Assembly: GCA_965199715.1 (NCBI GenBank)
Contig: OZ241322.1
Coordinates: forward strand, 2,080,001 to 2,144,000
Length of the DNA: 64,000 nt
Source of the DNA: Vicinamibacteria bacterium
GTDB lineage: Bacteria > Acidobacteriota > Vicinamibacteria > Marinacidobacterales > Marinacidobacteraceae
Direction: 5' to 3'
A program made the translations under genes and the position numbers. Position 1 is the first letter of the stretch. Every line of letters begins with the position of its first letter. Positions 17,357 to 52,531 of the stretch are shown here, piece after piece. Under the pieces are notes generated by a model, which did no database searches, was not told the origin of the DNA, and saw nothing but the letters and a program-made list of their open reading frames with translations.

Positions 17357-18282
17357 ACGCGCCGTCCTCCCGGACGGTCCTCGCGCTGGTCGGGCCGAAC
17401 GCCTCGGGGAAGTCCGCGCTCGCGGTCCGGCTCGCCGCCCGCCTCCCACCGCCGGTCGAGATCGTTTCCTGCGACGCGATCCAGGTCTATCGGGGGCTCG
17501 ACGTCGGCTCCGGCAAGCTGCCGCCGGCGGAACGCGGCGGAGTCCCCCACCACCTGCTGGACACGCTGGACCCGGACGACGCCTGCACCGCCGGACGCTA
17601 CGCCGAGATGGCCGCCGCCGCGATCCGGGACGTCCGCCGGCGGGGCGCGCTTCCGCTCGTCGTGGGCGGCAGCGGGCTGTACTTCCGCGCGCTGCGCGAC
17701 GGCGTCTTCGAGGAGCCGGCGCCGCGCTCCCCCGAGCTGCGCCGCCGCCTGCAGCGCCTCTACCGGAGTCCCGCGGGCGCGCGCCGGCTCGACGCGATGC
17801 TCGCCCGGCGCGATCCCGGCGCGGCGGCGCGGATCCACGCCCGCGACCTCGTCCGCCGGGTGCGGGCGCTGGAGGTCGTCCTGCTCGCGGGGGTTCCGAT
17901 CACCAAGCTCCAGGGCGAGAACCGCCCCCCGCTGCCAGACGCGGAATGGAGGGCGGCGTGGCTGGATCCGCCGCGCGAGACCGACCGCGCCCGCATCGCC
18001 GCCCGGGTCCGGAGCATGTTCGGGGCCGGCCTCCTCGAGGAGGCCGCGGCGCTCGAGCGCCGGCATGGGGACCGCTGGCGCGCCCGCAACGCCATCGGCT
18101 ACCGGGAGGCGATCGCCGGACTCCCGGACGCCGAGGCCGCGATCGTCGCCGCCTCGCGCCGCTACGCCCGCCGCCAGCGCGCGTGGTTCCGCGCCGAGCG
18201 GAACGTCCAGCGCCACGCCGGGGACGCCCGGGACGTCGAGGACGCCGTCCTCGCGCAGTTCCTCACAGCTCCTCCACGGTGA
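17341..18282 (+). CDS. miaA: tRNA dimethylallyltransferase (start approximate)
   Basis: GPNASGKS, EIVSCDAIQVYRGLDVGSGK, VPHHLLD, VVGGSGLY, YARRQRAWFR. Confidence 0.93.
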   Translation: MPQRLNAPSSRTVLALVGPNASGKSALAVRLAARLPPPVEIVSCDAIQVYRGLDVGSGKLPPAERGGVPHHLLDTLDPDDACTAGRYAEMAAAAIRDVRRRGALPLVVGGSGLYFRALRDGVFEEPAPRSPELRRRLQRLYRSPAGARRLDAMLARRDPGAAARIHARDLVRRVRALEVVLLAGVPITKLQGENRPPLPDAEWRAAWLDPPRETDRARIAARVRSMFGAGLLEEAAALERRHGDRWRARNAIGYREAIAGLPDAEAAIVAASRRYARRQRAWFRAERNVQRHAGDARDVEDAVLAQFLTAPPR

Positions 18283-20455: not shown

Positions 20456-20473
20456 CCCCCTATACTCGCGCAG
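20456..20473. promoter_or_regulatory. Putative bidirectional leaderless promoter for priA and pepA
   Basis: 18-bp gap between divergent starts. TATACT on + (20461-20466) overlaps GAGTAT on - (20467-20462). Confidence 0.55.
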
Positions 20474-21973
20474 ATGAGCACTGTCGGCCCCCCGCCGGTT
20501 TCGCCGGCGCCGCGCGCGCCGGCCGTCGCTTCGGCGTGGCCCGCCCTCGACCCCGCCATCCACGTCTTCCTGTTCGACGACCGGATCCGGTGCGTCGGCG
20601 GCGGCGAAGGCTGGCGGGGAGCCTTCGTGCGCGAGGCGAACGCCGTGTTCGAGGGAACGAAGGCCAAGCGGCCCTTCGCCCGCCCCGGCCAGGACGGCGA
20701 GCCGATGGCGGTGGCGTTCCACGGCCGCGGCGTCCCCGGCAGGCCGCCGGCGGAACGCGCCCGGATCCTCGCGGCGCGGGCGGTCGCCTGGGCCCGCGAC
20801 TTCGGCTTCTCCGAGCTCGCGTTCGTCCTCGACGGGCCGGACGGGCCCGGATTCGCTCCGGCCGTGGCCGAGGGCGCGACGCTCGCGTCGTACGAGTTCA
20901 GCCGCTATCTCTCGAACCCCGCAGAGCAGCCGGCGACGACACTTCTCGTTAGCGCCGCCGACGAGGCGGAGACCTCGGCCCGCGTCGCCGCCGCGGCCGC
21001 GCTCGCCGCCGACGTGAACCGGGCGCGGGACCTCATCAACGAACCCGCCGAGGCGCTGCCGCCGGAGGGACTCGCCGCCGAGGCCTGCGCCATCGCCGCC
21101 GAGGGGGACCTTGAGGTCGAGATCCTCGACGAGGCCGCGCTGCGCCGCGACGGCTACCCGGGGCTGATCTCGGTCGGGCAGGGAAGCCCCCGCCCGCCGC
21201 GCCTGATCGTCCTCCGCCATCGTCCCGAAGGCGCGGACCCCGAGCGCCACCTGGCGCTCGTCGGCAAGGGCATCACCTTCGACACCGGCGGCATCTCGCT
21301 GAAGCCGCCGAGCGGCATGTGGACCATGAAGGGGGACATGTCGGGCGCGGCGGCGGTGCTGCGGGCGATGGCCTCGGTCGCCCGAAGGAAGGTTCCGGCG
21401 CGGGTCACCGGAATCGTCGCGACCGCCGAGAACTTCGTCGGCCCGATGGCGACGCGCCCGGGCGACGTCTTCGTCGCCCGCAACGGCAAGTCGGTGATGG
21501 TGGATAACACCGACGCCGAGGGAAGGCTCGTCCTGAGCGACGCCCTCGCCCGCGCCGGCGAGGAGGGCGCCACCCACATCGTGGACGTGGCGACGCTCAC
21601 CGGAGCGGCGGTGCGGGCGCTCGGCACGGCGGTCGCGGCGGTCATGGGCAACGACCGCGACTGGGTCGGGCAGGTCATCGAGGCCGGCGAGCCGCACGGC
21701 GAGGCGTTCTGGGAGCTGCCGCTGGTCGAGGAGTACGTCGAGCAGCTCCGCACCGACTCGGCGGACCTCAAGAACATCGGCGGGATCAACGCCGGGGCGA
21801 TCACCGCGGGGCTGTTCCTGAAGGAGTTCGTGCCCGACAGGACGACGTGGGCCCACCTCGACATCGCCGGGCCGTTCCTCGTGGAGAAGCCGTGGAAGTA
21901 CTTCCCGAAGGGCGCCACCGGGTTCGGCGTGCGGACCCTCTACGAGCTCGCGAGCCGCTTCGCGGGCGGCTGA
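20474..21973 (+). CDS. pepA: Leucyl aminopeptidase (M17)
   Basis: VGKGITFDTGGISLK, MKGDMSGAA, NTDAEGRL, DVATLTGA, WAHLDIAG. Confidence 0.95.
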   Translation: MSTVGPPPVSPAPRAPAVASAWPALDPAIHVFLFDDRIRCVGGGEGWRGAFVREANAVFEGTKAKRPFARPGQDGEPMAVAFHGRGVPGRPPAERARILAARAVAWARDFGFSELAFVLDGPDGPGFAPAVAEGATLASYEFSRYLSNPAEQPATTLLVSAADEAETSARVAAAAALAADVNRARDLINEPAEALPPEGLAAEACAIAAEGDLEVEILDEAALRRDGYPGLISVGQGSPRPPRLIVLRHRPEGADPERHLALVGKGITFDTGGISLKPPSGMWTMKGDMSGAAAVLRAMASVARRKVPARVTGIVATAENFVGPMATRPGDVFVARNGKSVMVDNTDAEGRLVLSDALARAGEEGATHIVDVATLTGAAVRALGTAVAAVMGNDRDWVGQVIEAGEPHGEAFWELPLVEEYVEQLRTDSADLKNIGGINAGAITAGLFLKEFVPDRTTWAHLDIAGPFLVEKPWKYFPKGATGFGVRTLYELASRFAGG

Positions 21974-21979
21974 CCGCGC

Positions 21980-23125
21980 TCAGTCGCGGTCGTCGGTGAC
22001 TTCGAAGAAGGGCCGTTCCCGCTCGCGGAACTGCCCGACCAGCATGCGCACCACGCTTCCGTAGCTGCGGGCGCCGCCCGCGACCCGCATCGTTCTCAGG
22101 TAGGAGTCGTTCACGCGCCGGGCGGCGCCGCGGACGAGGCCCCGGTGCCGCGCCCAGAAGGCGTTGAGCGCCTCCAGATCGCGCCGCGGCCCGGAGCCGA
22201 GCCGGGCGAGGGCCCGCTCCCGGTCCGCGGGAGGCGCCGCGGCGACCAGGTGCCGGGTCGCGTAGAAGGAGGCGGCGTACTGGAGATAGGGGTGGGAGCC
22301 GGGCCGGGACAGCGCGAGGAACGCGGCGAAGCTGGCTTCGCCCTCGTGGGTGACCGCCCGCTGGTGCGCCTTCTCGTGGGCGGCGGTGAAGGCGATCGCC
22401 ACGTCGGGCGGCCCGGTGTTCAGGGTCGGCTCGCCGGTGAACGGCACGAAGATGCCGCTGATCCCGAGCCGCGACATGACTCCGGAGAGGATCGCGGGCT
22501 TCACCGGAACCGTCCGTCCGCCCCTGGGATCGCCCGGCAGGTCGATCCCCCGATACGCGGCGTCGATTCGCTGGCTGAGGTCGCGGTATCCGAGCGGATT
22601 CGTCGAGACCGCGTCGGTCGGAAGCCCGGCCAGCGCATGCAGGCGGGTGGTCTCGGCGGCCGACTCCTCGGCGAACCGGCCCAGTTCCGCCCCGGTGATG
22701 TCCCGGGTCAGGAGCCCCAGCCGGGGTTCGAGGAGCGGCCGCGCGTAGTTGAGGCCCCAGACCACGAGGAACAGCGCGTACAGCGCCCCGGCGACCGAGA
22801 GCACGAGAAGCGCCAGCGTCCCGAGCTGCCGGGGGAGGCTCGCCGCCGGCCCCGCCGGGGTTCGCCGGCGCGCGATGCGCCAGGCGAGGCGGACGACGAT
22901 CAGCGCCGACGCGCCGAGCACCAGCACCTCGGCGACGGAGAAGGGGACGAGGCCCGTGCCCCACGCGAAGACCGCGAGCACCCACGAGTAGAGGCCCTCG
23001 GTGTAGGAGGCCTCGACCGCCAGCGGCCGGGTGAGCCCGAGCCGGAACAGGAGCGCCGCCAGCAGGCCGGCGGCGACCCCGGCGAGCGCGATCCAGGGAC
23101 GCACGCGGCGGAGCCGGGAAGCCAT
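21980..23125 (-). CDS. DUF3810-family membrane-anchored zincin-like protein
   Basis: N-terminal TMs, WGLNYAR, GIFVPFTGE, AHEKAHQ (HExxH) followed by EGEASF. Confidence 0.8.
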   Translation of the reverse strand: MASRLRRVRPWIALAGVAAGLLAALLFRLGLTRPLAVEASYTEGLYSWVLAVFAWGTGLVPFSVAEVLVLGASALIVVRLAWRIARRRTPAGPAASLPRQLGTLALLVLSVAGALYALFLVVWGLNYARPLLEPRLGLLTRDITGAELGRFAEESAAETTRLHALAGLPTDAVSTNPLGYRDLSQRIDAAYRGIDLPGDPRGGRTVPVKPAILSGVMSRLGISGIFVPFTGEPTLNTGPPDVAIAFTAAHEKAHQRAVTHEGEASFAAFLALSRPGSHPYLQYAASFYATRHLVAAAPPADRERALARLGSGPRRDLEALNAFWARHRGLVRGAARRVNDSYLRTMRVAGGARSYGSVVRMLVGQFRERERPFFEVTDDRD

Positions 23126-39650: not shown

Positions 39651-40043
39651 AAGCGGCGGCGATCTCCGCCACGGACATGGAGCCGCTCGTCGAGCAGGGC
39701 CGGGAGCGGCTGGACGCGGTGATCCACCGATGGCGCGCCGCCGGGGTCTCCGACGAGGCCATCGGGGAGTGGCGCGAGCGGGCGGAGGCTCTTTTTCGCC
39801 GAGGCGATCGCTCAAGGTTGTTCGCCGGACCCGAACACGGCGGAGGAGCGCTTCGAGGTCTCCGCCGGGCGACCCGAAGGGCCGTCGAGCCGGGCCGCAC
39901 CACCGAGGAGCGGGCGGCCTCGCTGATCGCGCAGTACGAGGAGCACGCGCCGATAGCGAACGCCCGGCCAGCCGTTGCGGGGCCCCCCGCGCTCCCCTAA
40001 AATGAGCGGTGCGGCTTTGCCCGGTTCTCGGCTGCCGCCCCCC

Positions 40044-42503
40044 ATGCTGACGCGCTCATTCCGAGTCCTGCCGGTCGCGCTCGCGGCGCTCGCCCTTGCC
40101 GGGATCGCGTCCGCCGAGGAGCCCTCGATTCGGGCGGCGCGGGAGTGGTCGCCGAACGAGGCGACCGCCGCCGAGCACAACCAGGTGCTCCGCCGCTACT
40201 GCATGACCTGTCACAACGACCGGATGCAGACGGGCAACCTCTCGCTGACCGGGTTCGACGCCGGCGCCGCCGAGAGCCATCCCGACGTGGCCGAGAAGGT
40301 GATCCGCAAGCTGCGGCTCGGGATGATGCCGCCGCCGGGGGCCCGCCGCCCCGAAGAAACCGTTCTCGCCGACATCGCCCTCAGCCTCGAGGCGCGGATG
40401 GACCAGGCCGCCGCCGACCAGCCGAACCCGGGCCGCCGTTCCTTCCAGCGCCTGAACCGGGCCGAGTACAGCGCCGCCGTGCGCGATCTCCTCGCGCTCC
40501 CGGTGGACGGCGCCGACTACCTGCCGCAGGACACGATCAGCGCCAACTTCGACAACATCGCCGACGTCCAGCTCCTGTCGGCGACGCTCATGGACTCGTA
40601 CCTGCGGGCCGCGAGCGACATCAGCCGGCTGGCCGTCGGCGACCCCCGGGCCAGCGCCGCCGAGACCGGCTACCACGTGTCCCGCTGGTCCTCTCAGCTC
40701 GAGCGGGTCGAGGGCGCGCCCCACGGCACCCGCGGCGGGATCTCGGTGGAGCACATCTTCCCGGCGGACGGCGAGTACCGGTTCCGGATCGCCTTCCACC
40801 ACGAGACCACCGGCGCCATCGTGGGTTCGGGATCCAGCTCGATCCACACCTACGGCGAACCGGAGCAGGTCGAGATCTCCATCGACGGCGAGCGCGTCGC
40901 GCTCCTCGACGTGGGCCGCTGGATGCATGTCTCCGACCCGGACGGCGTGAACCTGCGCACCGAGCCGGTCTTCGTCCGCGCCGGCGCCCGCCGCCTCGCC
41001 GCTGCCTTCCTGCGCCGGTTCGAGGGGCCGGTGCTGGACCTGATCTCGCCGCACAAGTGGTCGCTCGCGAGCACCGCGACCTCGCGCACCTACGGCATCC
41101 ACGGGATGCCCCACCTGCGCGACCTCTTCGTCACCGGCCCCTTCGACGCGACCGGCGTGGCCGAAACGCGCAGCCGGGCGCGCGTCTTCAGTTGCCGCCC
41201 GCTCGCGCCCGAGGAGGCGCGTCCCTGCGCCGAGTCGATCATCGACCGCCTCGGGCGCCTCGCCTACCGCCGCTCGCTCGACGCCGCGGATCGCTCCCGC
41301 CTGCTGGAACTCTATGAACGGGGCGCCGCGGAGTCCGGGTTCGAGGAAGGCGTCCGGATGGCCGTCGAGGGGATGCTCGCGAGCCCCAACTTCGTCTTCC
41401 GCCTCGAGGAGCCGCTCGATCCGAGGGAAGCGGAGTTCGGCTACCGCATCACCGAGACCGATCTGGCATCCCGGCTGTCCTTCTTCCTGTGGGGGACGAT
41501 CCCCGACGAGCAGCTTCTGGACGCCGCCGAATCCGGCGAGCTGGCCGAACCCGAGGTCTTCGACGCGCAGGTGCTGCGGATGCTCCGCGACCCGCGCTCC
41601 GATGCGCTCGCGCGGCGGTTCGCGGCGCAGTGGTTCCGGCTCCAGGACCTCAAGAAGATCAACCCGAACGTCCGCCTCTACCCCGACTTCCACCAGCAGC
41701 TCAAGGCCGCGATGGCGAAGGAGACCGAGCTCTTCTTCCACCACCTCGTCGCCGAGGATCTCAGCCTGCTCGACCTGTTCACCGCCGACTACACGTTCGT
41801 GAACGAGCGCCTCGCCGACCACTACGGCTTCTCGGGCGTGGTCGGCCCCGAGCACCGGATGGTGCGGTACCCGGACGACACGCGCCGCGGGGTCTTCGGG
41901 CACGGCAGCATGCTGACCCTGACCTCGCACCCGTACCGCACCTCGGCGGTGCTGCGGGGCAAGTGGATCATGGAGGTGCTGCTCGGCAGCCCGCCGCCGC
42001 CCCCGCCGCCCGACGTGCCCGACCTCGACGCGGTCGCCTCGGACGTGCCCGGACGCGAGTTGACGGCCCGGGAGCAGCTCGAGATCCACCGGGACAACCC
42101 GGCCTGCCGGTCGTGCCACCGGATGATGGACCCGATCGGCCTCGCGCTCGAGCACTTCGACGTGACCGGTCGGGCGCGGGTCAAGGACCAGGGCCAGCCG
42201 ATCGACGCTTCGGGCGAGTTCTACGACGGCACCCCGATCCGCGACGCGGCGGACCTGCGGGAAGCCCTGCTGAAGCGCCCGGAGCCGCTGCTTCGGACCT
42301 TCACCGAGAACCTGATGGCCTACGCCCTGGGCCGCCGGGTGGAGCACTTCGACCAGCCGCATGTCCGCGCCATCGTGCGCGCCGCGGCGGAATCCGACTA
42401 CCGGATGTCGGCCTTCGTGCTTGGAGTCACGAGGAGCGCGGCGTTCCAGATGAAGGGCAGCGCCCCGCCGGTCGCGACGGACGACGTCGCCGGCGAGCAC
42501 TGA
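40044..42503 (+). CDS. Secreted di-heme cytochrome c domain protein of the DUF1587/1592/1588/1585 family (copy 1)
   Basis: Signal peptide, CMTCH, GMMPPPG, QRLNRAEY, LASRLSFFLW, ADYTFVNERLA, RTSAVLRGKW, CRSCH, DPIGLALEHFD. Confidence 0.9.
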   Translation: MLTRSFRVLPVALAALALAGIASAEEPSIRAAREWSPNEATAAEHNQVLRRYCMTCHNDRMQTGNLSLTGFDAGAAESHPDVAEKVIRKLRLGMMPPPGARRPEETVLADIALSLEARMDQAAADQPNPGRRSFQRLNRAEYSAAVRDLLALPVDGADYLPQDTISANFDNIADVQLLSATLMDSYLRAASDISRLAVGDPRASAAETGYHVSRWSSQLERVEGAPHGTRGGISVEHIFPADGEYRFRIAFHHETTGAIVGSGSSSIHTYGEPEQVEISIDGERVALLDVGRWMHVSDPDGVNLRTEPVFVRAGARRLAAAFLRRFEGPVLDLISPHKWSLASTATSRTYGIHGMPHLRDLFVTGPFDATGVAETRSRARVFSCRPLAPEEARPCAESIIDRLGRLAYRRSLDAADRSRLLELYERGAAESGFEEGVRMAVEGMLASPNFVFRLEEPLDPREAEFGYRITETDLASRLSFFLWGTIPDEQLLDAAESGELAEPEVFDAQVLRMLRDPRSDALARRFAAQWFRLQDLKKINPNVRLYPDFHQQLKAAMAKETELFFHHLVAEDLSLLDLFTADYTFVNERLADHYGFSGVVGPEHRMVRYPDDTRRGVFGHGSMLTLTSHPYRTSAVLRGKWIMEVLLGSPPPPPPPDVPDLDAVASDVPGRELTAREQLEIHRDNPACRSCHRMMDPIGLALEHFDVTGRARVKDQGQPIDASGEFYDGTPIRDAADLREALLKRPEPLLRTFTENLMAYALGRRVEHFDQPHVRAIVRAAAESDYRMSAFVLGVTRSAAFQMKGSAPPVATDDVAGEH

Positions 42504-42505
42504 TC

Positions 42506-43911
42506 CGGGAGAAAGAGATGAACTACCTGACGGGCAAGAGCATTCCTCGGCGGACGTTCCTGCGTGGGGCTGGGGCGACGGTGGCGGTTCCGTTCCTCGA
42601 CGCGATGGTTCCGGCGAGCGTCCTGGGGCGGACGACGGCGGACCGCGAGGCGGACCCGACGCGGCTGGTGGCGATCGAGATCGTGCACGGGGCGGCGGGG
42701 AGCAACAAGTACGGTCGTGAGCGGAACCTGTGGTCTCCGGCGGCGGAGGGGCGCGGGTTCGACCTGTCGGCGGGGGCGCTGGCGCCGCTGGAGCCGGTGC
42801 GGGACTACGTGACGATCGTGAGCGACGCGGACGTGGAGCCGGCGGAGGCGCGGACGGCGCGCGAGATCGGGGGGGACCACTTCCGTTCGAGCGCGGCGTT
42901 CCTGACGCAGTCGTACCCGAAGCAGACGGAGAGTTCGGACGTGTACGCGGGGACGTCGATGGACCAGTTGTACGCGCAGCGCTACGGGCAGAACACGCCG
43001 ATCCCGTCGATGCAGTTGTGCATCGAGACGGTGGACCAGGCGGGGGGCTGCGCGTACGGGTACGCCTGCGTGTACACGGACACGATCAGTTGGGCGTCGC
43101 CGACGGAGCCGCTGCCGATGACGCGGGATCCGCGGATCGTGTTCGACCAGTTGTTCGGTGCGGGGGGGACGCCGGAGGGCCGGATCGCGCGGCAGCGGGC
43201 GCGCCAGAGCGTGCTGGACTTCATCGGCTCGGAGGTGACGGACCTGCTGCTGCGGCTGGACCCGGAGGACGTGCGGCGGATGGACCGGTACATGACGGAC
43301 ATCCGGGAGATGGAGCGTCGGATCGAGCGGATCGTGGAGCGGAACACGAGCGGTGAGCTGCGGGAGCTTCCGGACGCGCCGGCGGGGGTTCCGGACTCGT
43401 TCGACGAGCACGTGAAGATCATGTTCGACCTTCAGGCGCTGGCGTTCCAGTCGGACATGACGCGGGTGTTCAGCTTCAAGCTGGGGCGGGACGCTTCGAG
43501 CCGGGTGTACCCGGAGAGCGGTGAGGCGACGGCGTTCCATCCGGCGTCGCATCACGGGAACGACGAGGAGCGGGTGGAGGTTCTGGGCCGGATCAACCGG
43601 TACCACGTGGGCCTGGTTCCGTACTTCATGGAGAAGCTGCGGAGCGTCGAGGAGGAGGGTCAGTCGCTGCTGGACAAGACGATGATCCTGTACGGGTCGC
43701 CGATGGGCGACCCGAACATCCACAACCACAAGCGGGTTCCGTTCTTCGTGGCGGGAGGCGCGAACGGGACGCTGGAGCACGACCTGCATCTGCGCGCTGC
43801 GCCGGGGACGCCGCTGGCGAACGTGATGCTGACGCTGCTGCGGAAGCTGGGCCTCGAGGACCTCGAGAGCTTCGGGAACAGCACCGGCGACTTCTCGCTC
43901 TCCGCATGACC
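42506..43911 (+). repeat. 1406-bp direct repeat, copy 1 (G/T-skewed, GRINS-like)
   Basis: Appears identical to 48424-49829 (offset 5918). The shadow-frame ORF translations are also identical. Confidence 0.92.
42518..43909 (+). CDS. DUF1552 (HxxSHH) protein with Tat-like signal (copy 1)
   Basis: RRTFLRGAG...PFLDAM, SMDQ, ISW, FHPASHH, HNH. RBS GGGAGA. Confidence 0.9.
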   Translation: MNYLTGKSIPRRTFLRGAGATVAVPFLDAMVPASVLGRTTADREADPTRLVAIEIVHGAAGSNKYGRERNLWSPAAEGRGFDLSAGALAPLEPVRDYVTIVSDADVEPAEARTAREIGGDHFRSSAAFLTQSYPKQTESSDVYAGTSMDQLYAQRYGQNTPIPSMQLCIETVDQAGGCAYGYACVYTDTISWASPTEPLPMTRDPRIVFDQLFGAGGTPEGRIARQRARQSVLDFIGSEVTDLLLRLDPEDVRRMDRYMTDIREMERRIERIVERNTSGELRELPDAPAGVPDSFDEHVKIMFDLQALAFQSDMTRVFSFKLGRDASSRVYPESGEATAFHPASHHGNDEERVEVLGRINRYHVGLVPYFMEKLRSVEEEGQSLLDKTMILYGSPMGDPNIHNHKRVPFFVAGGANGTLEHDLHLRAAPGTPLANVMLTLLRKLGLEDLESFGNSTGDFSLSA

Positions 43912-43923
43912 GGGAGAACCATC

Positions 43924-45861
43924 ATGAGAAAAGCGACCATCCTGCTTTCGGCCCTTCTGCTCGTCACCGTCGCGTGGGCCGCGAACGCCCGCCTCTCGCC
44001 GGTCCTCGACGCGGCGAAGACCGGCGACGTTTCCGCGCTCAAGGACGAGCTGCGCTCGGGCGGCGACGTGAACGCGGCGCAGGGCGACGGGTTCACCGCG
44101 CTGCACTGGGCGGCGAAGCTCGGGAACGAGGAGATCGCCCGGGTGCTGATCGCGGCGGGGGCGGACGTGCGGGCGACGACCCGGATCGGCAACCACATGC
44201 CGCTCCACGTCGCTTCGGCCGCGGGCCAGCCCCTCGTCGTCGAGGCGCTTCTCGTCGGCGGCGCGCCGGTCGGGGCCCTGACGGCCACCGGAACCCGGCC
44301 GATCCACTACGCGGCGGCCTCGGGCAGCGGCGCGACGGTCGCGTCCCTCGCGGCCGGCGGCGCCGACGTGGACGCGGTCGAGCCGCAGTGGGGCCAGACC
44401 CCGCTCATGTTCGCCGCCGGCGGCGGCCGGTCGGAGTCGGTGCAGGCGCTTCTGGACGCCGGGGCCGATCCCTCGATCACCGCGAAGGTGCTGGACGTGG
44501 CGTCCCGCGCCGAGGCCGACCTCGTGGCGCGCCGCGCCCGCCAGCGGCGGATCGCCGAGGCGCGGGGCGGCGGCGCCGCCAACGTGATCTTCGATCCGCG
44601 GGAGCGCGAGCGGCGGCGGCGCGAGGCGGCCGCGAAAGCCGCGGCCGAGAAGGCCGAGCGCGAGAAGGGGCGCACCGCCCCCGAGACGGCCGACGTCGAG
44701 GCGGACAAGGCCGAGGAGGCCGAAGAGGAGGAGCACGCCCGCGCCCACGGCCATCCCGAGGACGAGCTGAAGAAGCTCGAGGACGAGGAGAAGGCCAAGG
44801 AGGAAGAGGACGCGAAACAGCAGGCCGAGCGCGAGCAGCGCGCCCGCGAGCCGCAGTTCCTCGGCTACGCCGAGCTCGTCGGAACCCACGGCGGGCTGAC
44901 CCCGCTGCTGCTGGCGGCGCGCGACGGCTACCGGGAGACCGCACTGACGCTCATGGACGGCGGCGCCGACGTGAACCAGCGCGCCGAGGGGCACCTCACG
45001 ACGCCGCTCATGATGGCCTCGCTCAACGGTCATTACGACATCGGCATGGACATGCTCGAGCGCGGGGCCGACCCGAACCTGCGGAACATCTCCGGCGGCG
45101 CGCCGCTCTACGCGGCGATCAACGCCCGCTGGATCTCCCAGCCGTTCCACCCACAGCCGGCGGACCACCTCCGGCAGAGCACGTCGCACGTCGAGTTCAT
45201 GGAGGCGCTGCTCGACGCGGGCGCGGACGTGAACGCCCGGCTCCACCGCAAGCAGTGGTACAGCACCTACAACACCGACCAGTTGGGCGTGGACCGCGCC
45301 GGCGCCACCGCGTTCTGGCGCGCCGCCTACGCGCTCGACGTCCCGGCGATGAAGCTGCTCGTCGAGCGCGGGGCCGACCCGCACATCCCGACGATCAAGG
45401 TCGCCCAGCGGCGCTACCGCGGGTCGATCCTCGAGGACGAGTTCGGCGGGGAGGATCCCTCCGGGCTTCCGCCCGCGCCCTTCGGCGGACCGGCGGTCTA
45501 TCCGATCCACGCGGCCGCGGGAGTCGGCTACGGCCTCGGCCTCGCCGCCAACTCGCACCGCCACGCCCCGGACGCCTGGATGCCGGCGGTGCGGTACCTG
45601 GTCGAGGAGCTCGGAGCCGACGTGAGCTCGCGCGACCACGACGGGTACAGCGTGATCCACCACGCGGCCTCGCGCGGCGACAACGAGATGATCGAGTACC
45701 TCGTCGATAAGGGCGCCGACCCGCTGGTGATCGCCCGCACCGGGCAGACGACGATCGACCTCGCGAACGGACCCGTCCAGCGGATCAGCCCGTTCCCCGA
45801 CACGATCGAGCTCCTCGCGGGCTATGGCGTCAAGAACAACAACCGCTGCGTCGGCTGCTGA
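43924..45861 (+). CDS. Secreted ankyrin-repeat protein with C-terminal CVGC (copy 1)
   Basis: Signal peptide, GFTALHWAA, GQTPLMFAA, TPLLLAAR, GADVNA repeats, charged insert, ends NNNRCVGC. Alternative start at 43906. Confidence 0.9.
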   Translation: MRKATILLSALLLVTVAWAANARLSPVLDAAKTGDVSALKDELRSGGDVNAAQGDGFTALHWAAKLGNEEIARVLIAAGADVRATTRIGNHMPLHVASAAGQPLVVEALLVGGAPVGALTATGTRPIHYAAASGSGATVASLAAGGADVDAVEPQWGQTPLMFAAGGGRSESVQALLDAGADPSITAKVLDVASRAEADLVARRARQRRIAEARGGGAANVIFDPRERERRRREAAAKAAAEKAEREKGRTAPETADVEADKAEEAEEEEHARAHGHPEDELKKLEDEEKAKEEEDAKQQAEREQRAREPQFLGYAELVGTHGGLTPLLLAARDGYRETALTLMDGGADVNQRAEGHLTTPLMMASLNGHYDIGMDMLERGADPNLRNISGGAPLYAAINARWISQPFHPQPADHLRQSTSHVEFMEALLDAGADVNARLHRKQWYSTYNTDQLGVDRAGATAFWRAAYALDVPAMKLLVERGADPHIPTIKVAQRRYRGSILEDEFGGEDPSGLPPAPFGGPAVYPIHAAAGVGYGLGLAANSHRHAPDAWMPAVRYLVEELGADVSSRDHDGYSVIHHAASRGDNEMIEYLVDKGADPLVIARTGQTTIDLANGPVQRISPFPDTIELLAGYGVKNNNRCVGC

Positions 45862-45868
45862 CACGACC

Positions 45869-48319
45869 ATGACCCGCATCCTGCTCGCCTCCCTGCTTCT
45901 CGCCGGTCCGGTCGCGGCCGAGACCGAGCCGACCGTCGCGCGGGCGCTCGCCTGGGAGCCGGCCGGGACGGCGGCGGAGACGGCCGCCGAGCACAACCAG
46001 GTCATGCGCCGCTACTGCATGACCTGCCACAACGACCGGATGCGGACGGGCAACCTGTCGCTCACCGGATTCGACGCCGGGGCCGCGGCGGCCCATCCGG
46101 ACGTCGCCGAGAAGGTCGTCTCCAAGCTCCATTTGGGCATGATGCCGCCGCCGGGCGCGCGGCGGCCCGACGAGGAGACGCTCGTCGAGATCGCCGGCGC
46201 GCTCGAGGACCAGTTGGACGAGTCGGCGACGCTCCAGCCGAACCCGGGCCGGCGCTCGTTCCAGCGGCTGAACCGGGCCGAGTACACCGCGGCGATCCGG
46301 GATCTGCTGGATCTCGACGTGGACGCCGCCGAGTACCTGCCGCAGGACACCATCAGCGCCAACTTCGACAACATCGCCGACGTCCAGCTCCTGTCGGCGA
46401 CGCTCATGGACTCGTACCTGCGGGCGGCCGGCGAGATCAGCCGGGTCGCGGTCGGGGATCCCGACACCGCGCCGGCGGAGACCAGCTACTTCGTCTCGCG
46501 CTGGGCCTCGCAGCGGATGCAGGTCGAGGGCGCTCCCTACGGCACCCGCGGTGGGATTGCGGTCGAGCACACCTTTCCGGCGGACGGCCACTACGTCTTC
46601 CGGGTCTCGCTCCACCACGAGGTCTGCGGCCCGATCGTGGGGACCGCCGCCGGCGCGCTGAACGACGCGAGCACCCCCGAGCAGCTCGAGGTGTCCATCG
46701 ACGGGCAGCGGGTCGCGCTCCTGCCGGTGGACCCGTGGATGCACACCTCGGATCCCGACGGCGCGACGATGCGCACCGAGCCTATCTTCGTCCGCGCCGG
46801 GCCCCGCATGGTGGCCGCCGCGTTCCTGCGCACCTTCGACGGCCCGACGCTGGACCTGGTCTCGCCGCATGAATGGTCGCTCGCAAGCACGAACATCGCG
46901 CTGACCTACGGCATCCACAGCCTCCCGCACCTGCGCGACGTGCTGATCCGGGGGCCGTTCGAGGCGACCGGCGTCTCCGACACGCCGAGCCGCCAGCGCA
47001 TCTTCTCCTGCCGCCCGCTCTCGCCCGAAGAGGCGCGTCCGTGCGCCGAGGAGATCGTGGACCGGCTCGGGCGCCTCGCCTACCGGCGCTCGCTCGAGGA
47101 CCAAAACCGGAACGCGCTGCTCGCGCTCTACGACGCCGGCTACGAGGCCGAGGGGTTCGAGGCGGGGATCCGGATGGCGCTGGAAGGGGTTCTCGCGAGC
47201 CCCAACTTCGTGTTCCGGATCGAGGAGCCGCTCGATCCGAGGGAAGCGGAGTTCGGCTACCGCATCACCGACACGGACCTCGCGTCCCGGCTGTCCTTCT
47301 TCCTGTGGGGGACGATCCCCGACGACGAGCTTCTGGACGCCGCCGAATCCGGCGAGCTCTCCGAACCCCAGACGCTGCGCGCCCAGGTCCTGCGCATGCT
47401 GCGGGACGACCGCGCCCGCGCGCTGTCGCGGCGATTCGCCCACCAGTGGTTCCGTCTCCAGGATCTCAAGAAGATCAACCCGAACGTCCGCATCTACCCC
47501 GACTTCCACCAACAGCTCAAGACGGCCATGGTGAAGGAGACGGAGATGTTCTTCGACCACCTCGTGGCCGAGGACCGGAGCGTCTTCGATCTCTACGCGG
47601 CGGACTACACGTTCCTGAACGAGCGGCTCGCGAAGCACTACGGGATTCCCGGGGTGGTCGGCCCCGAGCACCGGATGGTGCGGTACCCGGACGACACGCG
47701 CCGCGGGGTCTTCGGGCACGGCAGCATGCTGACCCTGACCTCGCACCCGTACCGCACCTCGGCGGTGCTGCGGGGCAAGTGGATCATGGAGGTGCTGCTC
47801 GGCAGCCCGCCGCCGCCCCCGCCGCCCGACGTGCCCGACCTCGACGCCGTGGAGTCCGGCGAGCCGGGCCGGCAGCTCACCGCCCGGGAGCAGCTCGAGA
47901 TCCACCGGGACAACCCGGCCTGCCGATCCTGCCACCGGATGATGGACCCGATCGGCCTCGCGCTCGAGCACTTCGACGTGACCGGACGGACCCGTGTCAA
48001 GGACCAGGGCCAGCCGGTGGACGCTTCGGGCGAGTTCTACGACGGCACCCCGATCCAGGACGTGAAGGACCTGCGGGAAGCCCTGCTGAAGCGCCCGATC
48101 CCGCTGCTTCGGACCTTCACCGAGAACCTGATGGCCTACGCCCTGGGCCGCCGGATCGAGTACTTCGACCAGCCGCGGATCCGCGAGATCGTGGCCGCCG
48201 CCGAGGCCGAGGACCACCGCTTCTCGGCCTTCGTTCTGGGCGTGGTCACGAGCCCCGCGTTCCAGGAGAAGGGCGAGGCCATGGAAGTCGCGACGGACGC
48301 GGTCGCGGGAGAGCAGTAA
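45869..48319 (+). CDS. DUF1592-family di-heme cytochrome c protein (copy 2)
   Basis: Same architecture as copy 1 (CMTCH, CRSCH). Diverged, with identical patches. Confidence 0.9.
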   Translation: MTRILLASLLLAGPVAAETEPTVARALAWEPAGTAAETAAEHNQVMRRYCMTCHNDRMRTGNLSLTGFDAGAAAAHPDVAEKVVSKLHLGMMPPPGARRPDEETLVEIAGALEDQLDESATLQPNPGRRSFQRLNRAEYTAAIRDLLDLDVDAAEYLPQDTISANFDNIADVQLLSATLMDSYLRAAGEISRVAVGDPDTAPAETSYFVSRWASQRMQVEGAPYGTRGGIAVEHTFPADGHYVFRVSLHHEVCGPIVGTAAGALNDASTPEQLEVSIDGQRVALLPVDPWMHTSDPDGATMRTEPIFVRAGPRMVAAAFLRTFDGPTLDLVSPHEWSLASTNIALTYGIHSLPHLRDVLIRGPFEATGVSDTPSRQRIFSCRPLSPEEARPCAEEIVDRLGRLAYRRSLEDQNRNALLALYDAGYEAEGFEAGIRMALEGVLASPNFVFRIEEPLDPREAEFGYRITDTDLASRLSFFLWGTIPDDELLDAAESGELSEPQTLRAQVLRMLRDDRARALSRRFAHQWFRLQDLKKINPNVRIYPDFHQQLKTAMVKETEMFFDHLVAEDRSVFDLYAADYTFLNERLAKHYGIPGVVGPEHRMVRYPDDTRRGVFGHGSMLTLTSHPYRTSAVLRGKWIMEVLLGSPPPPPPPDVPDLDAVESGEPGRQLTAREQLEIHRDNPACRSCHRMMDPIGLALEHFDVTGRTRVKDQGQPVDASGEFYDGTPIQDVKDLREALLKRPIPLLRTFTENLMAYALGRRIEYFDQPRIREIVAAAEAEDHRFSAFVLGVVTSPAFQEKGEAMEVATDAVAGEQ

Positions 48320-48334
48320 CCCGCAAGCGTTCAA

Positions 48335-48373
48335 CGACTTGTGCCCGCAGGCCTTCGCTGCGGGCGCGAGTTG
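48335..48373 (+). other. Intergenic RNA hairpin (16-bp stem with G-U pairs)
   Basis: cgacttgtgcccgcag-gccttcg-ctgcgggcgcgagttg. All three non-Watson-Crick positions are G-U on the + strand. Confidence 0.6.
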
Positions 48374-48423
48374 CGGCGGACCGGCGGCCGCCATATCCTA
48401 GACGGCCGGATTCCACCTCCACA

Positions 48424-49829
48424 CGGGAGAAAGAGATGAACTACCTGACGGGCAAGAGCATTCCTCGGCGGACGTTCCTGCGTGGGGCTGGGGCGACGGT
48501 GGCGGTTCCGTTCCTCGACGCGATGGTTCCGGCGAGCGTCCTGGGGCGGACGACGGCGGACCGCGAGGCGGACCCGACGCGGCTGGTGGCGATCGAGATC
48601 GTGCACGGGGCGGCGGGGAGCAACAAGTACGGTCGTGAGCGGAACCTGTGGTCTCCGGCGGCGGAGGGGCGCGGGTTCGACCTGTCGGCGGGGGCGCTGG
48701 CGCCGCTGGAGCCGGTGCGGGACTACGTGACGATCGTGAGCGACGCGGACGTGGAGCCGGCGGAGGCGCGGACGGCGCGCGAGATCGGGGGGGACCACTT
48801 CCGTTCGAGCGCGGCGTTCCTGACGCAGTCGTACCCGAAGCAGACGGAGAGTTCGGACGTGTACGCGGGGACGTCGATGGACCAGTTGTACGCGCAGCGC
48901 TACGGGCAGAACACGCCGATCCCGTCGATGCAGTTGTGCATCGAGACGGTGGACCAGGCGGGGGGCTGCGCGTACGGGTACGCCTGCGTGTACACGGACA
49001 CGATCAGTTGGGCGTCGCCGACGGAGCCGCTGCCGATGACGCGGGATCCGCGGATCGTGTTCGACCAGTTGTTCGGTGCGGGGGGGACGCCGGAGGGCCG
49101 GATCGCGCGGCAGCGGGCGCGCCAGAGCGTGCTGGACTTCATCGGCTCGGAGGTGACGGACCTGCTGCTGCGGCTGGACCCGGAGGACGTGCGGCGGATG
49201 GACCGGTACATGACGGACATCCGGGAGATGGAGCGTCGGATCGAGCGGATCGTGGAGCGGAACACGAGCGGTGAGCTGCGGGAGCTTCCGGACGCGCCGG
49301 CGGGGGTTCCGGACTCGTTCGACGAGCACGTGAAGATCATGTTCGACCTTCAGGCGCTGGCGTTCCAGTCGGACATGACGCGGGTGTTCAGCTTCAAGCT
49401 GGGGCGGGACGCTTCGAGCCGGGTGTACCCGGAGAGCGGTGAGGCGACGGCGTTCCATCCGGCGTCGCATCACGGGAACGACGAGGAGCGGGTGGAGGTT
49501 CTGGGCCGGATCAACCGGTACCACGTGGGCCTGGTTCCGTACTTCATGGAGAAGCTGCGGAGCGTCGAGGAGGAGGGTCAGTCGCTGCTGGACAAGACGA
49601 TGATCCTGTACGGGTCGCCGATGGGCGACCCGAACATCCACAACCACAAGCGGGTTCCGTTCTTCGTGGCGGGAGGCGCGAACGGGACGCTGGAGCACGA
49701 CCTGCATCTGCGCGCTGCGCCGGGGACGCCGCTGGCGAACGTGATGCTGACGCTGCTGCGGAAGCTGGGCCTCGAGGACCTCGAGAGCTTCGGGAACAGC
49801 ACCGGCGACTTCTCGCTCTCCGCATGACC
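48424..49829 (+). repeat. 1406-bp direct repeat, copy 2 (G/T-skewed, GRINS-like)
   Basis: Appears identical to 42506-43911. Confidence 0.92.
48436..49827 (+). CDS. DUF1552 (HxxSHH) protein (copy 2, identical to copy 1)
   Basis: Translation identical to 42518..43909. Confidence 0.9.
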   Translation: MNYLTGKSIPRRTFLRGAGATVAVPFLDAMVPASVLGRTTADREADPTRLVAIEIVHGAAGSNKYGRERNLWSPAAEGRGFDLSAGALAPLEPVRDYVTIVSDADVEPAEARTAREIGGDHFRSSAAFLTQSYPKQTESSDVYAGTSMDQLYAQRYGQNTPIPSMQLCIETVDQAGGCAYGYACVYTDTISWASPTEPLPMTRDPRIVFDQLFGAGGTPEGRIARQRARQSVLDFIGSEVTDLLLRLDPEDVRRMDRYMTDIREMERRIERIVERNTSGELRELPDAPAGVPDSFDEHVKIMFDLQALAFQSDMTRVFSFKLGRDASSRVYPESGEATAFHPASHHGNDEERVEVLGRINRYHVGLVPYFMEKLRSVEEEGQSLLDKTMILYGSPMGDPNIHNHKRVPFFVAGGANGTLEHDLHLRAAPGTPLANVMLTLLRKLGLEDLESFGNSTGDFSLSA

Positions 49830-51587
49830 TTTCGCCTCCTGCTGGTCGCGATCCTCGCGGTGGCGTGGCAGGCGCTCGCCCAGTCGTCCGTGCTGGACGC
49901 CGCCATGCGCGGCGATCTCGCGGCGCTCAAGGAGCGCGTGCGCTCGGGCGGCGACGTGAACGCGGCGCAGGGCGACGGGTTCACCGCGCTGCACTGGGCG
50001 GCGAAGCTCGGGAACGAGGAGATCGCCCGGGTGCTGATCGCGGCGGGGGCGGACGTGCGGGCGACGACCCGGATCGGCAACCACATGCCGCTCCACGTCG
50101 CGGCGGCGGCCGGTCAGGCCGGAGTCGCCGAGGCGCTGCTCGGGGGCGGGGCTCCGATCGCCCCGGCCACCGCCACCGGCGCCCTGCCGATCCACTTCGC
50201 CGCCGCCGCCGGCGATCCGAAGACCGTCCGGGCGCTTCTCGCGGCGGGCGCCGATCCCGGAGCGACCGAGGAGCATTGGGGCATGACGCCCCTCATGTTC
50301 GCCTCGGTGCGCGACCGGACGACGGTGATTCCCGTGCTGCTCGGGGCGGGCGCCGACGCGGACGCGGCCGCGAACGTCCTCGACGTGGTGGAGCGCGCCC
50401 GGCTCGACGCCGAGGAGCGCCGGGCGTGGCAGGAGCAGCTCGCCGCCGAGCGCGGGGAGTCCGGCGTGCTCCGCGCCGAACGGCCGCTCACGGCCACCGG
50501 CTCCGATCCGACGCGCGGAACCGGCGGGACCGGCGGCGGCGCGCCCCCCGAGCCCGAGGCGCGCGAGCGCGACCCGGACGAGCCCCGCCCGCTCAGCTAC
50601 GAGGAGCGGGTGCGCTCCCACGGCGGCCTCACCGCGCTGCTCCTCGCCGCGCGCGAGGGACAGGTCGCGTCCGCGCTCGCGCTTCTCGACGCCGGGGCCG
50701 ACGTGAACCGGCCTGCCGAGGGGACCGGCACCACGCCGCTGCTCATGGCGGTCATCAACGGGCACTTCGACCTCGCGATGACGCTGCTCGGACGGGGCGC
50801 CGACCCCACGATCGCCGACGTCCAGGGCGCGACGCCGCTCTACGGAGCCGTCAACACCTATTGGATCCCGAAGGCCCGTCACCCGCAGCCCGCCGACTAC
50901 CTGCGCCAGGAGACTTCGCACCTCGATCTCATGCAGGCGCTCATCGACGCGGGAGCCGACGTGGACGCGCGGATCGACCACTCGCTCTGGTACACGGTCT
51001 TCAACGTGGACCAGCTCGGCGTGGACCGCAGCGGCGCCACCGCGTTCTGGCGCGCCGCCTACGCGCTCGACGTCCCGGCGATGAAACTGCTCGTCGAAAA
51101 CGGCGCGAACCCCCACCTTCCCACGGTGAAGGTTCCGGAACGGCGACGGCTTCCGAACCTGCTCGAGGAGGGCGAGGCCGATCCGTCCGGCCTGCCTCCG
51201 TCCGAGCTCGGGGATCCCGCCGTCTATCCGATCCACGCCGCCGCCGGAGTCGGCTACGGCCTCGGCCTCGCCGCCAACTCGCATCGCCACGCCCCGGACG
51301 CATGGATGCCCGCCGTCCGGTACCTGGTGGAGGAGGCGGGCGCCGACGTGAGCGTGCGCGACCACAACGGATACACCACCATCCACCATGCGGCCTCGCG
51401 CGGCCACACCGAGATGGTCCAGTACTTGATCGACCACGGCGCCGACCCGCTCGCGGTCGCCCGGACCGGCCAGACGACGATCGATCTCGCGAACGGCCCG
51501 GTGCAGCGGATCAACCCGTTCCCGGAAACCATCGCGCTGCTCGAGACGTACGGAGCGAAGAACAACCACGCATGCGTCGGTTGTTGA
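49824..51587 (+). CDS. Secreted ankyrin-repeat protein with C-terminal CVGC (copy 2)
   Basis: Signal peptide, ankyrin repeats, ends NNHACVGC. Confidence 0.9.
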   Translation: MTFRLLLVAILAVAWQALAQSSVLDAAMRGDLAALKERVRSGGDVNAAQGDGFTALHWAAKLGNEEIARVLIAAGADVRATTRIGNHMPLHVAAAAGQAGVAEALLGGGAPIAPATATGALPIHFAAAAGDPKTVRALLAAGADPGATEEHWGMTPLMFASVRDRTTVIPVLLGAGADADAAANVLDVVERARLDAEERRAWQEQLAAERGESGVLRAERPLTATGSDPTRGTGGTGGGAPPEPEARERDPDEPRPLSYEERVRSHGGLTALLLAAREGQVASALALLDAGADVNRPAEGTGTTPLLMAVINGHFDLAMTLLGRGADPTIADVQGATPLYGAVNTYWIPKARHPQPADYLRQETSHLDLMQALIDAGADVDARIDHSLWYTVFNVDQLGVDRSGATAFWRAAYALDVPAMKLLVENGANPHLPTVKVPERRRLPNLLEEGEADPSGLPPSELGDPAVYPIHAAAGVGYGLGLAANSHRHAPDAWMPAVRYLVEEAGADVSVRDHNGYTTIHHAASRGHTEMVQYLIDHGADPLAVARTGQTTIDLANGPVQRINPFPETIALLETYGAKNNHACVGC

Positions 51588-51616
51588 TCCGCTCCGCTCT
51601 CTCGCGAGGAATCCCG

Positions 51617-52531
51617 ATGCGCCCGCTCCTTCTCTCCGCTCTCGCGCTGCTGCTCGCCGCGCCCGCCCTCGCGCAGGATCCCGACTGGGACGCCGTCGAG
51701 ATCACCTCCGAGGATCTCGGGAACGGCGTCCACGTGCTGTTCGGCCGGGGCGGCAACATCGGCGTCAGCGCCGGAGCCGACGGGGCGCTGCTCGTCGATG
51801 ACCAGTACGCGCCGCTCACCGACAAGATCCTCGCCGCCGTCGGCGGGATCACCGACGAGCCGGTCCGGTTCGTCGTGAACACGCACTGGCACGGCGACCA
51901 CACCGGCGGCAACGAGAACCTCGGGAAGGCCGGCAGCCTCATCGTGGCGCACGAGAACGTCCGCCGCCGGATGAACCCCGCCGACTTCGCCGACCTCGTC
52001 GGCCGCAGCGACCAGGCGGCCCCCGAAGCGCTCCCGGTGGTCACCTTCGAGCACGGCGTCACCCTGCACTGGAACGGTCTCGCCATCGAGGCCGTCCACG
52101 CCCCGAGCGCCCACACCGACGGCGATTCGATCATCTTCTTCGAGGGCGCCGACGTCGTCCACATGGGCGACCTCTTCTTCAACGGCGCCTTCCCGTTCAT
52201 CGACGTGGACTCGGGCGGCCACATCGACGGCCTGATCGCCGCCGCCGCGCTCGTCGCCGACCGCACCGACGCCCAGACCCAGATCATTCCCGGACACGGT
52301 CCGATGGCCGACCGGGCGCGGCTGCTGCGCTACCAAGCGGCGCTCGAGGCGGCGAAGGAGCGCATCGGCGCCCGGGTCGAGGCGGGCCAGTCGGAGGACG
52401 AGGCCGCGGCGGACTACGCGGCGCTCGTCACCGGGATCGGGACCGACGTCGGCTGGTCCCCCGACGCCGCCGGCTTCGTGAACGCGGAGCGGTTCGTCCG
52501 GCTCGTCCACCGGAGCCTCAGCTCGAACTAG
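51617..52531 (+). CDS. Secreted MBL-fold metallo-hydrolase
   Basis: RBS GAGGA, signal peptide, NTHWHGDHTGGN, AHTDGD, HMGD, IIPGHG. Confidence 0.9.
   Translation: MRPLLLSALALLLAAPALAQDPDWDAVEITSEDLGNGVHVLFGRGGNIGVSAGADGALLVDDQYAPLTDKILAAVGGITDEPVRFVVNTHWHGDHTGGNENLGKAGSLIVAHENVRRRMNPADFADLVGRSDQAAPEALPVVTFEHGVTLHWNGLAIEAVHAPSAHTDGDSIIFFEGADVVHMGDLFFNGAFPFIDVDSGGHIDGLIAAAALVADRTDAQTQIIPGHGPMADRARLLRYQAALEAAKERIGARVEAGQSEDEAAADYAALVTGIGTDVGWSPDAAGFVNAERFVRLVHRSLSSN

Follow-up and report, generated by a model that had tools for sequence, protein, structure and literature searches.

A G-skewed gene conversion tract on the DUF1552 genes of a duplicated exported-protein operon in Acidobacteriota

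The stretch analyzed here (the window; 64,000 nucleotides (nt) of contig OZ241322.1, assembly GCA_965199715.1) comes from the genome of a Vicinamibacteria bacterium of the phylum Acidobacteriota, designated G000 below. It contains two tandem units, A and B, each of about 5.9 kb and each with the gene order DUF1592-DUF1552-ankyrin. The units share one perfectly identical block, which comprises the DUF1552 gene and is recoded at its silent sites toward G on the coding strand. The block and its neighbors are listed here in window coordinates.

40017..42503, plus strand: DUF1592-family gene A; its longest open reading frame (ORF) starts at 39975; outside the identical tract in G000.
42506..43911, plus strand: identical block copy A, the conversion tract; 1406 nt; GC skew +0.186.
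42506..42517, plus strand: ribosome-binding region common to both copies, GGGAGAAAGAG-type, directly 5' of the start codon and at the left tract edge; read from the sequence.
42518..43909, plus strand: DUF1552 gene A; 463 amino acids (aa), with a twin-arginine-type N-terminal signal, SIPRRTFLRGAGA, read from the sequence.
43906..45861, plus strand: ankyrin-repeat gene A (Pfam Ank families); ATGA overlap with the DUF1552 stop codon.
45869..48319, plus strand: DUF1592-family gene B (Pfam); its longest ORF starts at 45824.
48320..48423, plus strand: 104-nt spacer of unit B only (unit A has 2 nt here); this indel abuts the left tract edge.
48424..49829, plus strand: identical block copy B; 1406 nt; coding sequence 48436-49827.
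49824..51587, plus strand: ankyrin-repeat gene B (Pfam); clusters by position, together with the ankyrin genes of the relatives' second units.

Aligned directly, 42506-43911 and 48424-49829 match at all 1406 nt (0 mismatches), and beyond either end the identity breaks off. Each block consists of a 12-nt ribosome-binding stretch, the 1392-nt coding sequence and 2 further nt. The paralogous flanks, compared in 300-nt pieces, are 77-85% identical at the nucleotide level, so the original prediction for this stretch, that the blocks look identical while the paralogs around them differ, is borne out. DUF1592 A and B share 614 of 813 aa (76%; 82.6% nt identity over 2367 nt) and the ankyrin proteins 379 of 640 aa (59%), the right tract edge being the point at which the ankyrin signal peptides diverge. 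A search of the whole 2.66-Mb genome finds the repeat sequence only as this single pair. A third DUF1592-DUF1552-ankyrin operon lies elsewhere in G000; its DUF1552 shares 59% of aa and 69% of nt positions with the repeat gene.

The DUF1552 product matches Pfam PF07586 (HXXSHH/DUF1552; 1.3e-76, 258.6 bits against a cut-off of 30), and searches of NCBIfam and of PDB sequences gave no match. The product of DUF1592 gene A is secreted and c-type cytochrome-like, with two CXXCH motifs that occur in both units and are visible in the A/B alignment, and contains Pfam PSD4/DUF1592 (4.5e-47) together with DUF1588, DUF1585, DUF1587 and DUF1595. Ankyrin A has an in-frame alternative start at 43924, and its N-terminus resembles a signal peptide. 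It also contains a Glu/Lys-rich insert of about 90 aa that is missing from ankyrin B; the insert corresponds to a spike of A over T at window positions 44550-44999 (AT skew +0.54 to +0.74). Among the ten other neighboring proteins scanned within about 10 kb on either side, none is a polyketide synthase (PKS) or nonribosomal peptide synthetase (NRPS).

The block is composed of 573 G, 393 C, 229 A and 211 T (GC skew +0.186, TA skew -0.04), in a window with an overall GC skew of -0.014; its GC content is.687 vs.72 for the window. In 150-nt windows over the block the GC skew averages +0.197 (range +0.06 to +0.29), and just 0.1% of equal-length segments of the genome match its mean absolute GC skew; its mean absolute TA skew, 0.082, is exceeded by 96% of them. 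The original prediction had estimated a GC skew of about +0.25 and a TA skew of about +0.19 from a hand count of four lines. That count was exact (G110 C66 T38 A26), but the lines are unrepresentative for T and A: the positive GC skew is real and lower at full length, and the TA skew disappears, T exceeding A at third codon positions only (T 29 vs A 3). The value of about -0.1 that had been read from two lines of DUF1592 agrees with the means of the whole genes, -0.078 and -0.050 (gene A: -0.08 overall, -0.16 at third positions).

The predicted switch in codon usage at synonymous positions is equally clear. DUF1552 third positions are 62.3% G, 30.8% C, 6.2% T and 0.6% A, vs 51-55% C and 40-43% G in the four neighboring genes. 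In four-fold degenerate boxes (n=264) the gene has G.814, C.095, T.083 and A.008, a GC skew of about +0.79, vs genome-wide values of G.453, C.483, T.034 and A.030; the unlinked third DUF1552 paralog has G.438 and C.512, with a third-position skew of -0.13. Two-fold codons ending in a purine use A in 0 of 58 cases (genome.119), and those ending in a pyrimidine keep C (T.056; genome.094). Together, the four-fold and two-fold codons follow the rule "G wherever synonymous". Skews at codon positions 1, 2 and 3 are +0.16, -0.08 and +0.34, vs genome means of +0.18, -0.08 and -0.08 (standard deviation 0.10 at position 3), and the third-position value ranks 3-4 among the 1186 genes of at least 900 nt. 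The G+C content of third positions (GC3) is.93, compared with.92-.95 in the neighboring genes, which are unskewed although their start and stop codons overlap those of DUF1552 and co-transcription is probable. No G-quadruplex motifs were found in the tract or in the copies of six relatives.

Matches turned up in 34 of the 41 genomes that were searched, among them 23 of the 24 members of the same family; in most cases there are two near-equal copies a few kb apart. For comparison with G000, the copy pairs of 19 relatives were retrieved, 18 of them members of the family and one an outgroup. Copy pairs are 97.5-100% identical in nine genomes of four genera (G000-G003; G006 and G011; G007 and G014; G008), 86-92% identical in ten genomes of genus g2 and 71% identical in the outgroup. 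A tree of the DUF1552 coding sequences (40 rows) places the two copies of every one of the nine genomes next to each other as sisters, with support of 99-100 in the seven non-identical pairs; the other two pairs are identical. In a tree of the downstream ankyrin DNA, the 17 second-position rows form one clade (support 97), and the position label needs 3 changes vs 13.4 expected from shuffles. Because the ankyrin genes group by position and the DUF1552 copies group as sisters, the duplication is older than the family, and DUF1552 has been homogenized separately in each lineage. These trees, in agreement with the original suggestion of conversion between the copies, show concerted evolution, in which recurrent gene conversion keeps the DUF1552 copies identical. 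For the 3' half of DUF1592, copies group by genus (g1, g5), by genome (g4, g6) or by position (g2), a mixture that shows episodic conversion. In G001, a genome of the same genus, one DUF1552 copy is 1.3 Mb from the other and on the opposite strand (loci L054 and L055); the pair is still 97.5% identical and skewed.

Skew follows identity across these genomes. The nine genomes with near-identical pairs have third-position skews of +0.23 to +0.44 and an excess of T over A at third positions (e.g., 57:3 and 44:1), vs -0.06 to +0.20 in the g2 genomes and -0.10 and -0.05 in the outgroup. The borders of the tract differ among relatives, and it reaches at least 1.4 kb into DUF1592 in G006, G008 and G011 and about 0.3 kb into the ankyrin gene in G006 and G011; hence the idea that a whole gene is held constant while its partners diversify describes G000 but not these relatives. 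In G008, 1.4 kb of DUF1592 is 100% identical between the copies and has a GC skew of +0.22 to +0.42; where identity falls to 0.72-0.79 the skew is near 0, and it climbs back to +0.33 to +0.45 in a second piece with identity of about 1. G006 and G011 behave in the same way, the skew following identity into DUF1592, and the same region of G000 is unskewed (-0.07 and -0.03). When six fixed segments were compared across 20 genomes, all 16 segments with at least 97% identity between copies had a GC skew of at least +0.15 (mean +0.24), and the 100 segments below 95% identity had a mean of +0.035 and a maximum of +0.27, at an ankyrin gene start. A window-based version of the comparison agrees with the fixed-segment version. 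Taken across the family, these alignments show a skew that is confined to the converted tract and is not a property of the gene.

In the g2 genomes, the first 300 nt of the ankyrin genes have an inter-unit identity of 0.66-0.86, vs about 0.55 for the rest (loci L039-L052), and a GC skew of +0.13 to +0.29; these gene starts may be an old tract that is eroding.

An exact 40-mer scan of the whole G000 genome returned 27 exact-repeat blocks of at least 250 nt, one of which provides a second case. Tandem CBM9_1/DUF5916 genes on the minus strand share an exact 896-nt block (G000:C1:597755-598650 and 600036-600931; locus L177) with a coding-strand GC skew of +0.21 and four-fold G of.81-.96; outside the block, the same genes have four-fold G of.33-.58 and inter-copy identity of 71-84%. 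Polarity was set by 13 homologues from five relatives. Inside the block, 39 of 48 four-fold sites with a conserved C are now G (4 are T and 5 still C), and 19 of 21 with a conserved G remain G; outside it, 23 of 60 conserved-C sites are G and 26 of 38 conserved-G sites remain G. Amino acid identity to the relatives is 0.756 inside the block and 0.765 outside, and the homologous CBM9 arrays of seven relatives contain no long identical tract and have skews of -0.24 to +0.10. As judged from these alignments, the recoding at this locus is derived, lineage-specific, purely synonymous and confined to the conversion tract.

The skewed exact blocks of G000 comprise the DUF1552 pair, transposase genes of the insertion sequence (IS) types IS3 and IS5, DUF1156 methyltransferase genes and the CBM9/DUF5916 genes, and all of them are G-rich on the coding strand. 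The DUF1156 methyltransferase-like genes contain exact blocks of 0.26-0.7 kb within segments of about 1 kb that are 90-96% identical among five copies, in surrounding units that are about 81% identical; their coding-strand GC skew is about +0.17, and they are probably a third tract of the same kind. The five segments are as follows.

G000:C1:758081-759084: DUF1156 segment.
G000:C1:762433-763442: DUF1156 segment.
G000:C2:8569-9581: DUF1156 segment.
G000:C2:13050-14077: DUF1156 segment.
G000:C2:304013-305160: DUF1156 segment.

Apart from the repeat, the genes of G000 with the highest excess of G at third positions are transposases of the IS256, IS3 and IS5 types, at +0.25 to +0.41 (G-rich transposase genes at G000:C1:2217412-2218662, 1697986-1699011, 687947, 1636578 and 1941009). 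Skew of the opposite sign is seen directly 3' of ankyrin B, where a metallo-beta-lactamase-fold gene (51581-52531, plus strand) is C-rich, with a third-position skew of -0.36. The scan also returned two long exact repeats. A 7-kb inverted repeat (G000:C2:1-6998 and 15645-22642) begins at the first base of contig C2, and a 3.6-kb repeat (C1:758739-762338 and C2:304812-308411) reaches the last bases of C2; as both touch contig ends, they may bear on how C1 and C2 are joined.

Among known systems, the closest are GRINS, genetic repeats marked by intense nucleotide skews, defined as duplicated sequences of more than 500 bp and more than 80% identity in which both GC and TA skew have mean absolute values over 0.15 in 150-nt windows taken at a 30-nt step (PMC8256042). 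GRINS occur in 53-90% of the genomes of five phyla, mostly in transposases; Acidobacteriota are not among the phyla surveyed (PMC8256042). The setting outside any PKS or NRPS, part of the original prediction, is thus correct in that none is nearby but is not new. In the literature searched, judged by titles, intense-skew repeats together with gene conversion are treated in PKS/NRPS settings only, and no work listed for DUF1552 or DUF1592 concerns the evolution of these families. The DUF1552 block (1406 nt at 100% identity) exceeds the GRINS thresholds for duplication, and its mean absolute GC skew exceeds that for GC (0.197 in G000; 0.17-0.23 across the nine skewed genomes). Further likenesses are that the skew is intense, strongest at third positions and linked to gene conversion, that the copies are near-identical within a genome and diverged between genomes, that the skew changes abruptly at the borders, and that the data fit the "life cycle" of build-up and erosion proposed by the GRINS authors (PMC8256042).

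Two other systems share part of this behavior. In concerted evolution of the tufA/tufB type, paralogs are near-identical within a genome and diverge between genomes, and the flanks are not homogenized. The DUF1552 pair resembles this picture, as its tract is roughly coextensive with the coding sequence and its flanks have diverged; synonymous recoding or strand skew is not known to be part of tufA/tufB-type cases, whereas 81% of the four-fold sites of DUF1552 are G. GC-biased gene conversion is a fixation bias tied to recombination that acts mainly at silent sites, as does the bias here. In contrast to it, GC3 is not raised in DUF1552 (.93, as in its neighbors), and because the bias is one of G vs C on one strand, ordinary GC-biased conversion cannot produce it. 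We class the locus as a GRINS-like conversion tract that is skewed in GC only and on the coding strand; its host is an ordinary operon for exported proteins in Acidobacteriota, and the comparative evidence for it is unusually clear.

The best explanation, to which we assign a probability of about 0.72, is a tandem-duplicated operon with recurrent conversion and conversion-linked recoding to G, i.e., a GRINS-type element. On this view the DUF1592-DUF1552-ankyrin operon was duplicated in tandem before this acidobacterial family radiated, and recurrent conversion between the units has held one stretch homogeneous. In G000 that stretch is exactly the ribosome-binding site and DUF1552, bounded on both sides by indels and diverged sequence. 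The silent sites of the converted stretch have been recoded, with G on the coding strand in place of C or A, leaving the protein and codon positions 1 and 2 ordinary. Since the same recoding is found at other near-identical tracts in G000, it is a property of often-converted DNA in this organism and not of the gene.

Several observations weigh against this explanation. As the nine skewed genomes are related, they may represent only 2-4 independent histories. Identity without skew also occurs: in G000, a tandem pair that is 90.7% identical overall contains a 520-nt exact tract (G000:C1:1759442-1759961 and 1763350-1763869) with four-fold G of only.38-.40, and the exact 3.6-kb and 7-kb duplications are unskewed. 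The CBM9 arrays of the relatives have short windows of 97-100% identity with no skew, and genome G036 (9.2 Mb) carries at least 12 dispersed DUF1552 copies (loci L137-L148) that are 96-100% identical and unskewed. The G036 unit, of about 1.7-1.8 kb, is a lone DUF1552 gene with unrelated flanks and no DUF1592 directly upstream in the three loci with ORFs listed; it may be a mobile or amplified cassette.

The likeness to GRINS is also incomplete, so that the name, apt for a conversion-tied synonymous skew, goes beyond the published definition in the matter of TA skew. The mean absolute TA skew lies below the threshold, at 0.082 in G000 and 0.07-0.11 in the nine skewed genomes, and the window correlation of GC and TA skews, about 0.70 (r) in GRINS (PMC8256042), is 0.16 for the block and -0.56 to +0.03 for the coding sequences of the nine genomes. 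In a genome with 69-72% GC, A and T are found mostly at codon positions 1 and 2, and the window measure of TA skew is therefore insensitive. Codon positions 1 and 2 of the tract are unshifted. Positively skewed GRINS regions encode more Gly, Val, Cys and Trp (PMC8256042). GRINS occur with both signs on one strand, but the skew here has one sign only, G-rich on the coding strand, and the host is an exported-protein operon in Acidobacteriota, a phylum outside the five surveyed (PMC8256042).

The direction of recent change is a further point against a simple accumulation of G. Inter-copy differences of DUF1552 in seven genomes are recent mutations, 101 of which were polarized by relatives and 5 were not. 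They include 30 C>T vs 12 G>A, 25 G>T vs 1 C>A, and 12 G>C vs 1 C>G. This recent input makes T, which accounts for the excess of T over A at third positions, and the same input removes G. Third-position changes fixed in both copies of a single genome run the same way (80 G>C vs 12 C>G, 90 G>T vs 2 C>A, and 58 C>T vs 27 G>A); for 39 of the 80 fixed G>C changes the assignment is unambiguous, because the unskewed genus also has G at those sites. As recent and fixed changes both lose G, the G excess of DUF1552 is now eroding, though the copies stay homogenized. The biased mutation proposed in the original prediction is not what these counts show at present: present mutation bias is not the cause of the skew, and some other directional force, or an earlier one, is needed to account for the G excess.

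The direction at the level of the family is ambiguous. In an RpoB tree rooted on two neighboring families, g2 is nested in the family as sister to g6 (96/92), and inside g2 the skew declines stepwise (.18-.19,.07,.17, then about 0). The DUF1552 skew is, on this tree, probably ancestral in the family and lost in g2. A count that took the g2 consensus as the ancestor (42 C>G vs 3 G>C) was dropped, since g2 is nested in the family and the polarity is possibly reversed.

At the level of mechanism, the conversion-linked explanation would run as follows. A force tied to conversion would build up the G excess episodically, and decay would follow. Conversion would carry a strand-asymmetric fixation bias, for instance a heteroduplex repair that retains G on the coding strand, and ordinary mutation (C>T, G>T and G>C) would erode the excess afterward. 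One candidate detail is that C-C mismatches may go uncorrected by mismatch repair if the transferred strand is always the same one. We regard this episodic build-up by strand-asymmetric fixation bias, with later erosion, as tentative, at about one chance in three. The substitution pattern is dominated by C>G, the dominant change here being a transversion, which sets it apart from the tautomer model of the GRINS authors, in which transitions are predicted (PMC8256042); C>G needs at least one transversion, and that model is therefore not the whole story here. The broader proposition, that a conversion-coupled, strand-specific recoding to coding-strand G, mainly C>G, has acted episodically on ordinary genes across the radiation of the family, is rather doubtful as it stands.

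Further candidate explanations were set aside. A cDNA conversion route by an error-prone reverse transcriptase would explain the coding-strand polarity, but the genome, which is 93% complete, has no RVT_1 match. Loss of repair genes finds no counterpart in the five genomes scanned (skewed G000, G003, G008 and G011, and unskewed G010), all of which contain MutS_V, MutL_C and RuvA_N. As for a replication-strand explanation, no clean minimum and maximum are seen in the cumulative GC skew along contig C1 by which leading and lagging strands could be told apart.

The main alternative reverses the order of events, with skew first: a G-rich non-template strand, by way of R-loops or lowered complexity, would promote recombination, and conversion itself would be unbiased. 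This is the order proposed by the GRINS authors (PMC8256042). It accords with the coding-strand G-richness of all skewed repeats on either strand (DUF1552, CBM9/DUF5916, IS3, IS5 and DUF1156), with a DUF1552 tract that is losing G while its copies stay 97.5-100% identical, and with the lower skew that accompanies lapsed conversion in g2. It leaves the source of the skew unexplained, however, and at the CBM9/DUF5916 genes the change of 39 of 48 conserved C to G occurs only within the exact block; a build-up confined to the tract is hard to obtain unless conversion is part of the cause. The overlapping, probably co-transcribed neighbor genes are unskewed, and the tract lacks G-quadruplex motifs. 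We consider a skew-first origin unlikely.

Codon selection for G-ending codons specific to DUF1552, for reasons of expression or messenger RNA, with copy identity a separate matter, would suit a skew that is limited to synonymous positions and a tract that coincides with the gene in G000. It is very improbable, given that neither the unlinked paralog nor the g2 orthologues show the skew, that in relatives the skew continues into DUF1592 and breaks off within that gene at the point where identity ends, and that in the CBM9/DUF5916 genes it covers only the internal 896 nt. That tract-confined synonymous recoding excludes both codon selection at the level of the gene and a foreign origin. A horizontally acquired foreign allele with a different codon usage that overwrote both copies might be suspected, as the other genes with the strongest G excess at third positions are mobile or defense genes (IS256, IS3 and IS5 transposases and the DUF1156 methyltransferase). 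This origin is scarcely credible either, since the tree of the tract follows the genera of the family and the CBM9 tract is as close to its relatives as the sequence around it.

An artefact of assembly or polishing (a collapsed or copied repeat), or a very recent duplication, could at first sight be suspected from exact identity that ends at gene edges, but the following evidence makes it the least credible alternative. The stretch is present in nine public runs from three studies. In three runs of two studies, one contig begins at exactly position 42506 and a second one stops at exactly 49829; these border contigs are about twice as deep as the unique flanks (127 vs 54-95, 129-146 vs 55-81, and 311-330 vs 129-154), as expected from an exact two-copy repeat in a de Bruijn graph. 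The runs that cover the stretch best may be the source sample and are perhaps not independent. Gaps in depth at 43522-43808 and 48688-49261 come from placing a contig with two possible positions only once and carry no weight here. In a low-depth run of the third study, contigs bridge 47652-49344 and 49320-50400, i.e., both borders of copy B, with 0 differences each. Relatives assembled as single contigs show the same DUF1552 pairs, and the copies differ at 3-35 positions in G001, G002, G003, G006, G007, G011 and G014. A recent duplication is opposed by the flanks of the tract, whose proteins are 59-76% identical and group by position across genera.

The pattern is a rare one, known until now chiefly from genes of antibiotic synthesis. 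The origin of GRINS, described only recently, is a matter of speculation in the original paper (PMC8256042). Compared with megasynthase genes, the locus described here and its relatives are simpler, as two copies are involved, the genomes are small and many relatives are complete; the borders of the tract vary among the relatives, the skew moves with them, the direction of change at the CBM9/DUF5916 locus is unambiguous, and recent mutations can be separated from older fixed changes. The mechanism is thereby constrained, in that a transversion is required and present-day mutation bias is excluded as the cause. The locus also cautions against taking a strong codon-usage anomaly within an ordinary gene as a sure sign of horizontal transfer. 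Direct tests are limited because the organism has not been cultured, and the interest is for the fields of recombination and genome composition. If conversion-coupled recoding is true, it would be a strand-specific biased gene conversion of a kind not yet described in bacteria, and the family would be a natural time series of fresh, eroding and lapsed tracts that would reveal the rules of the process.

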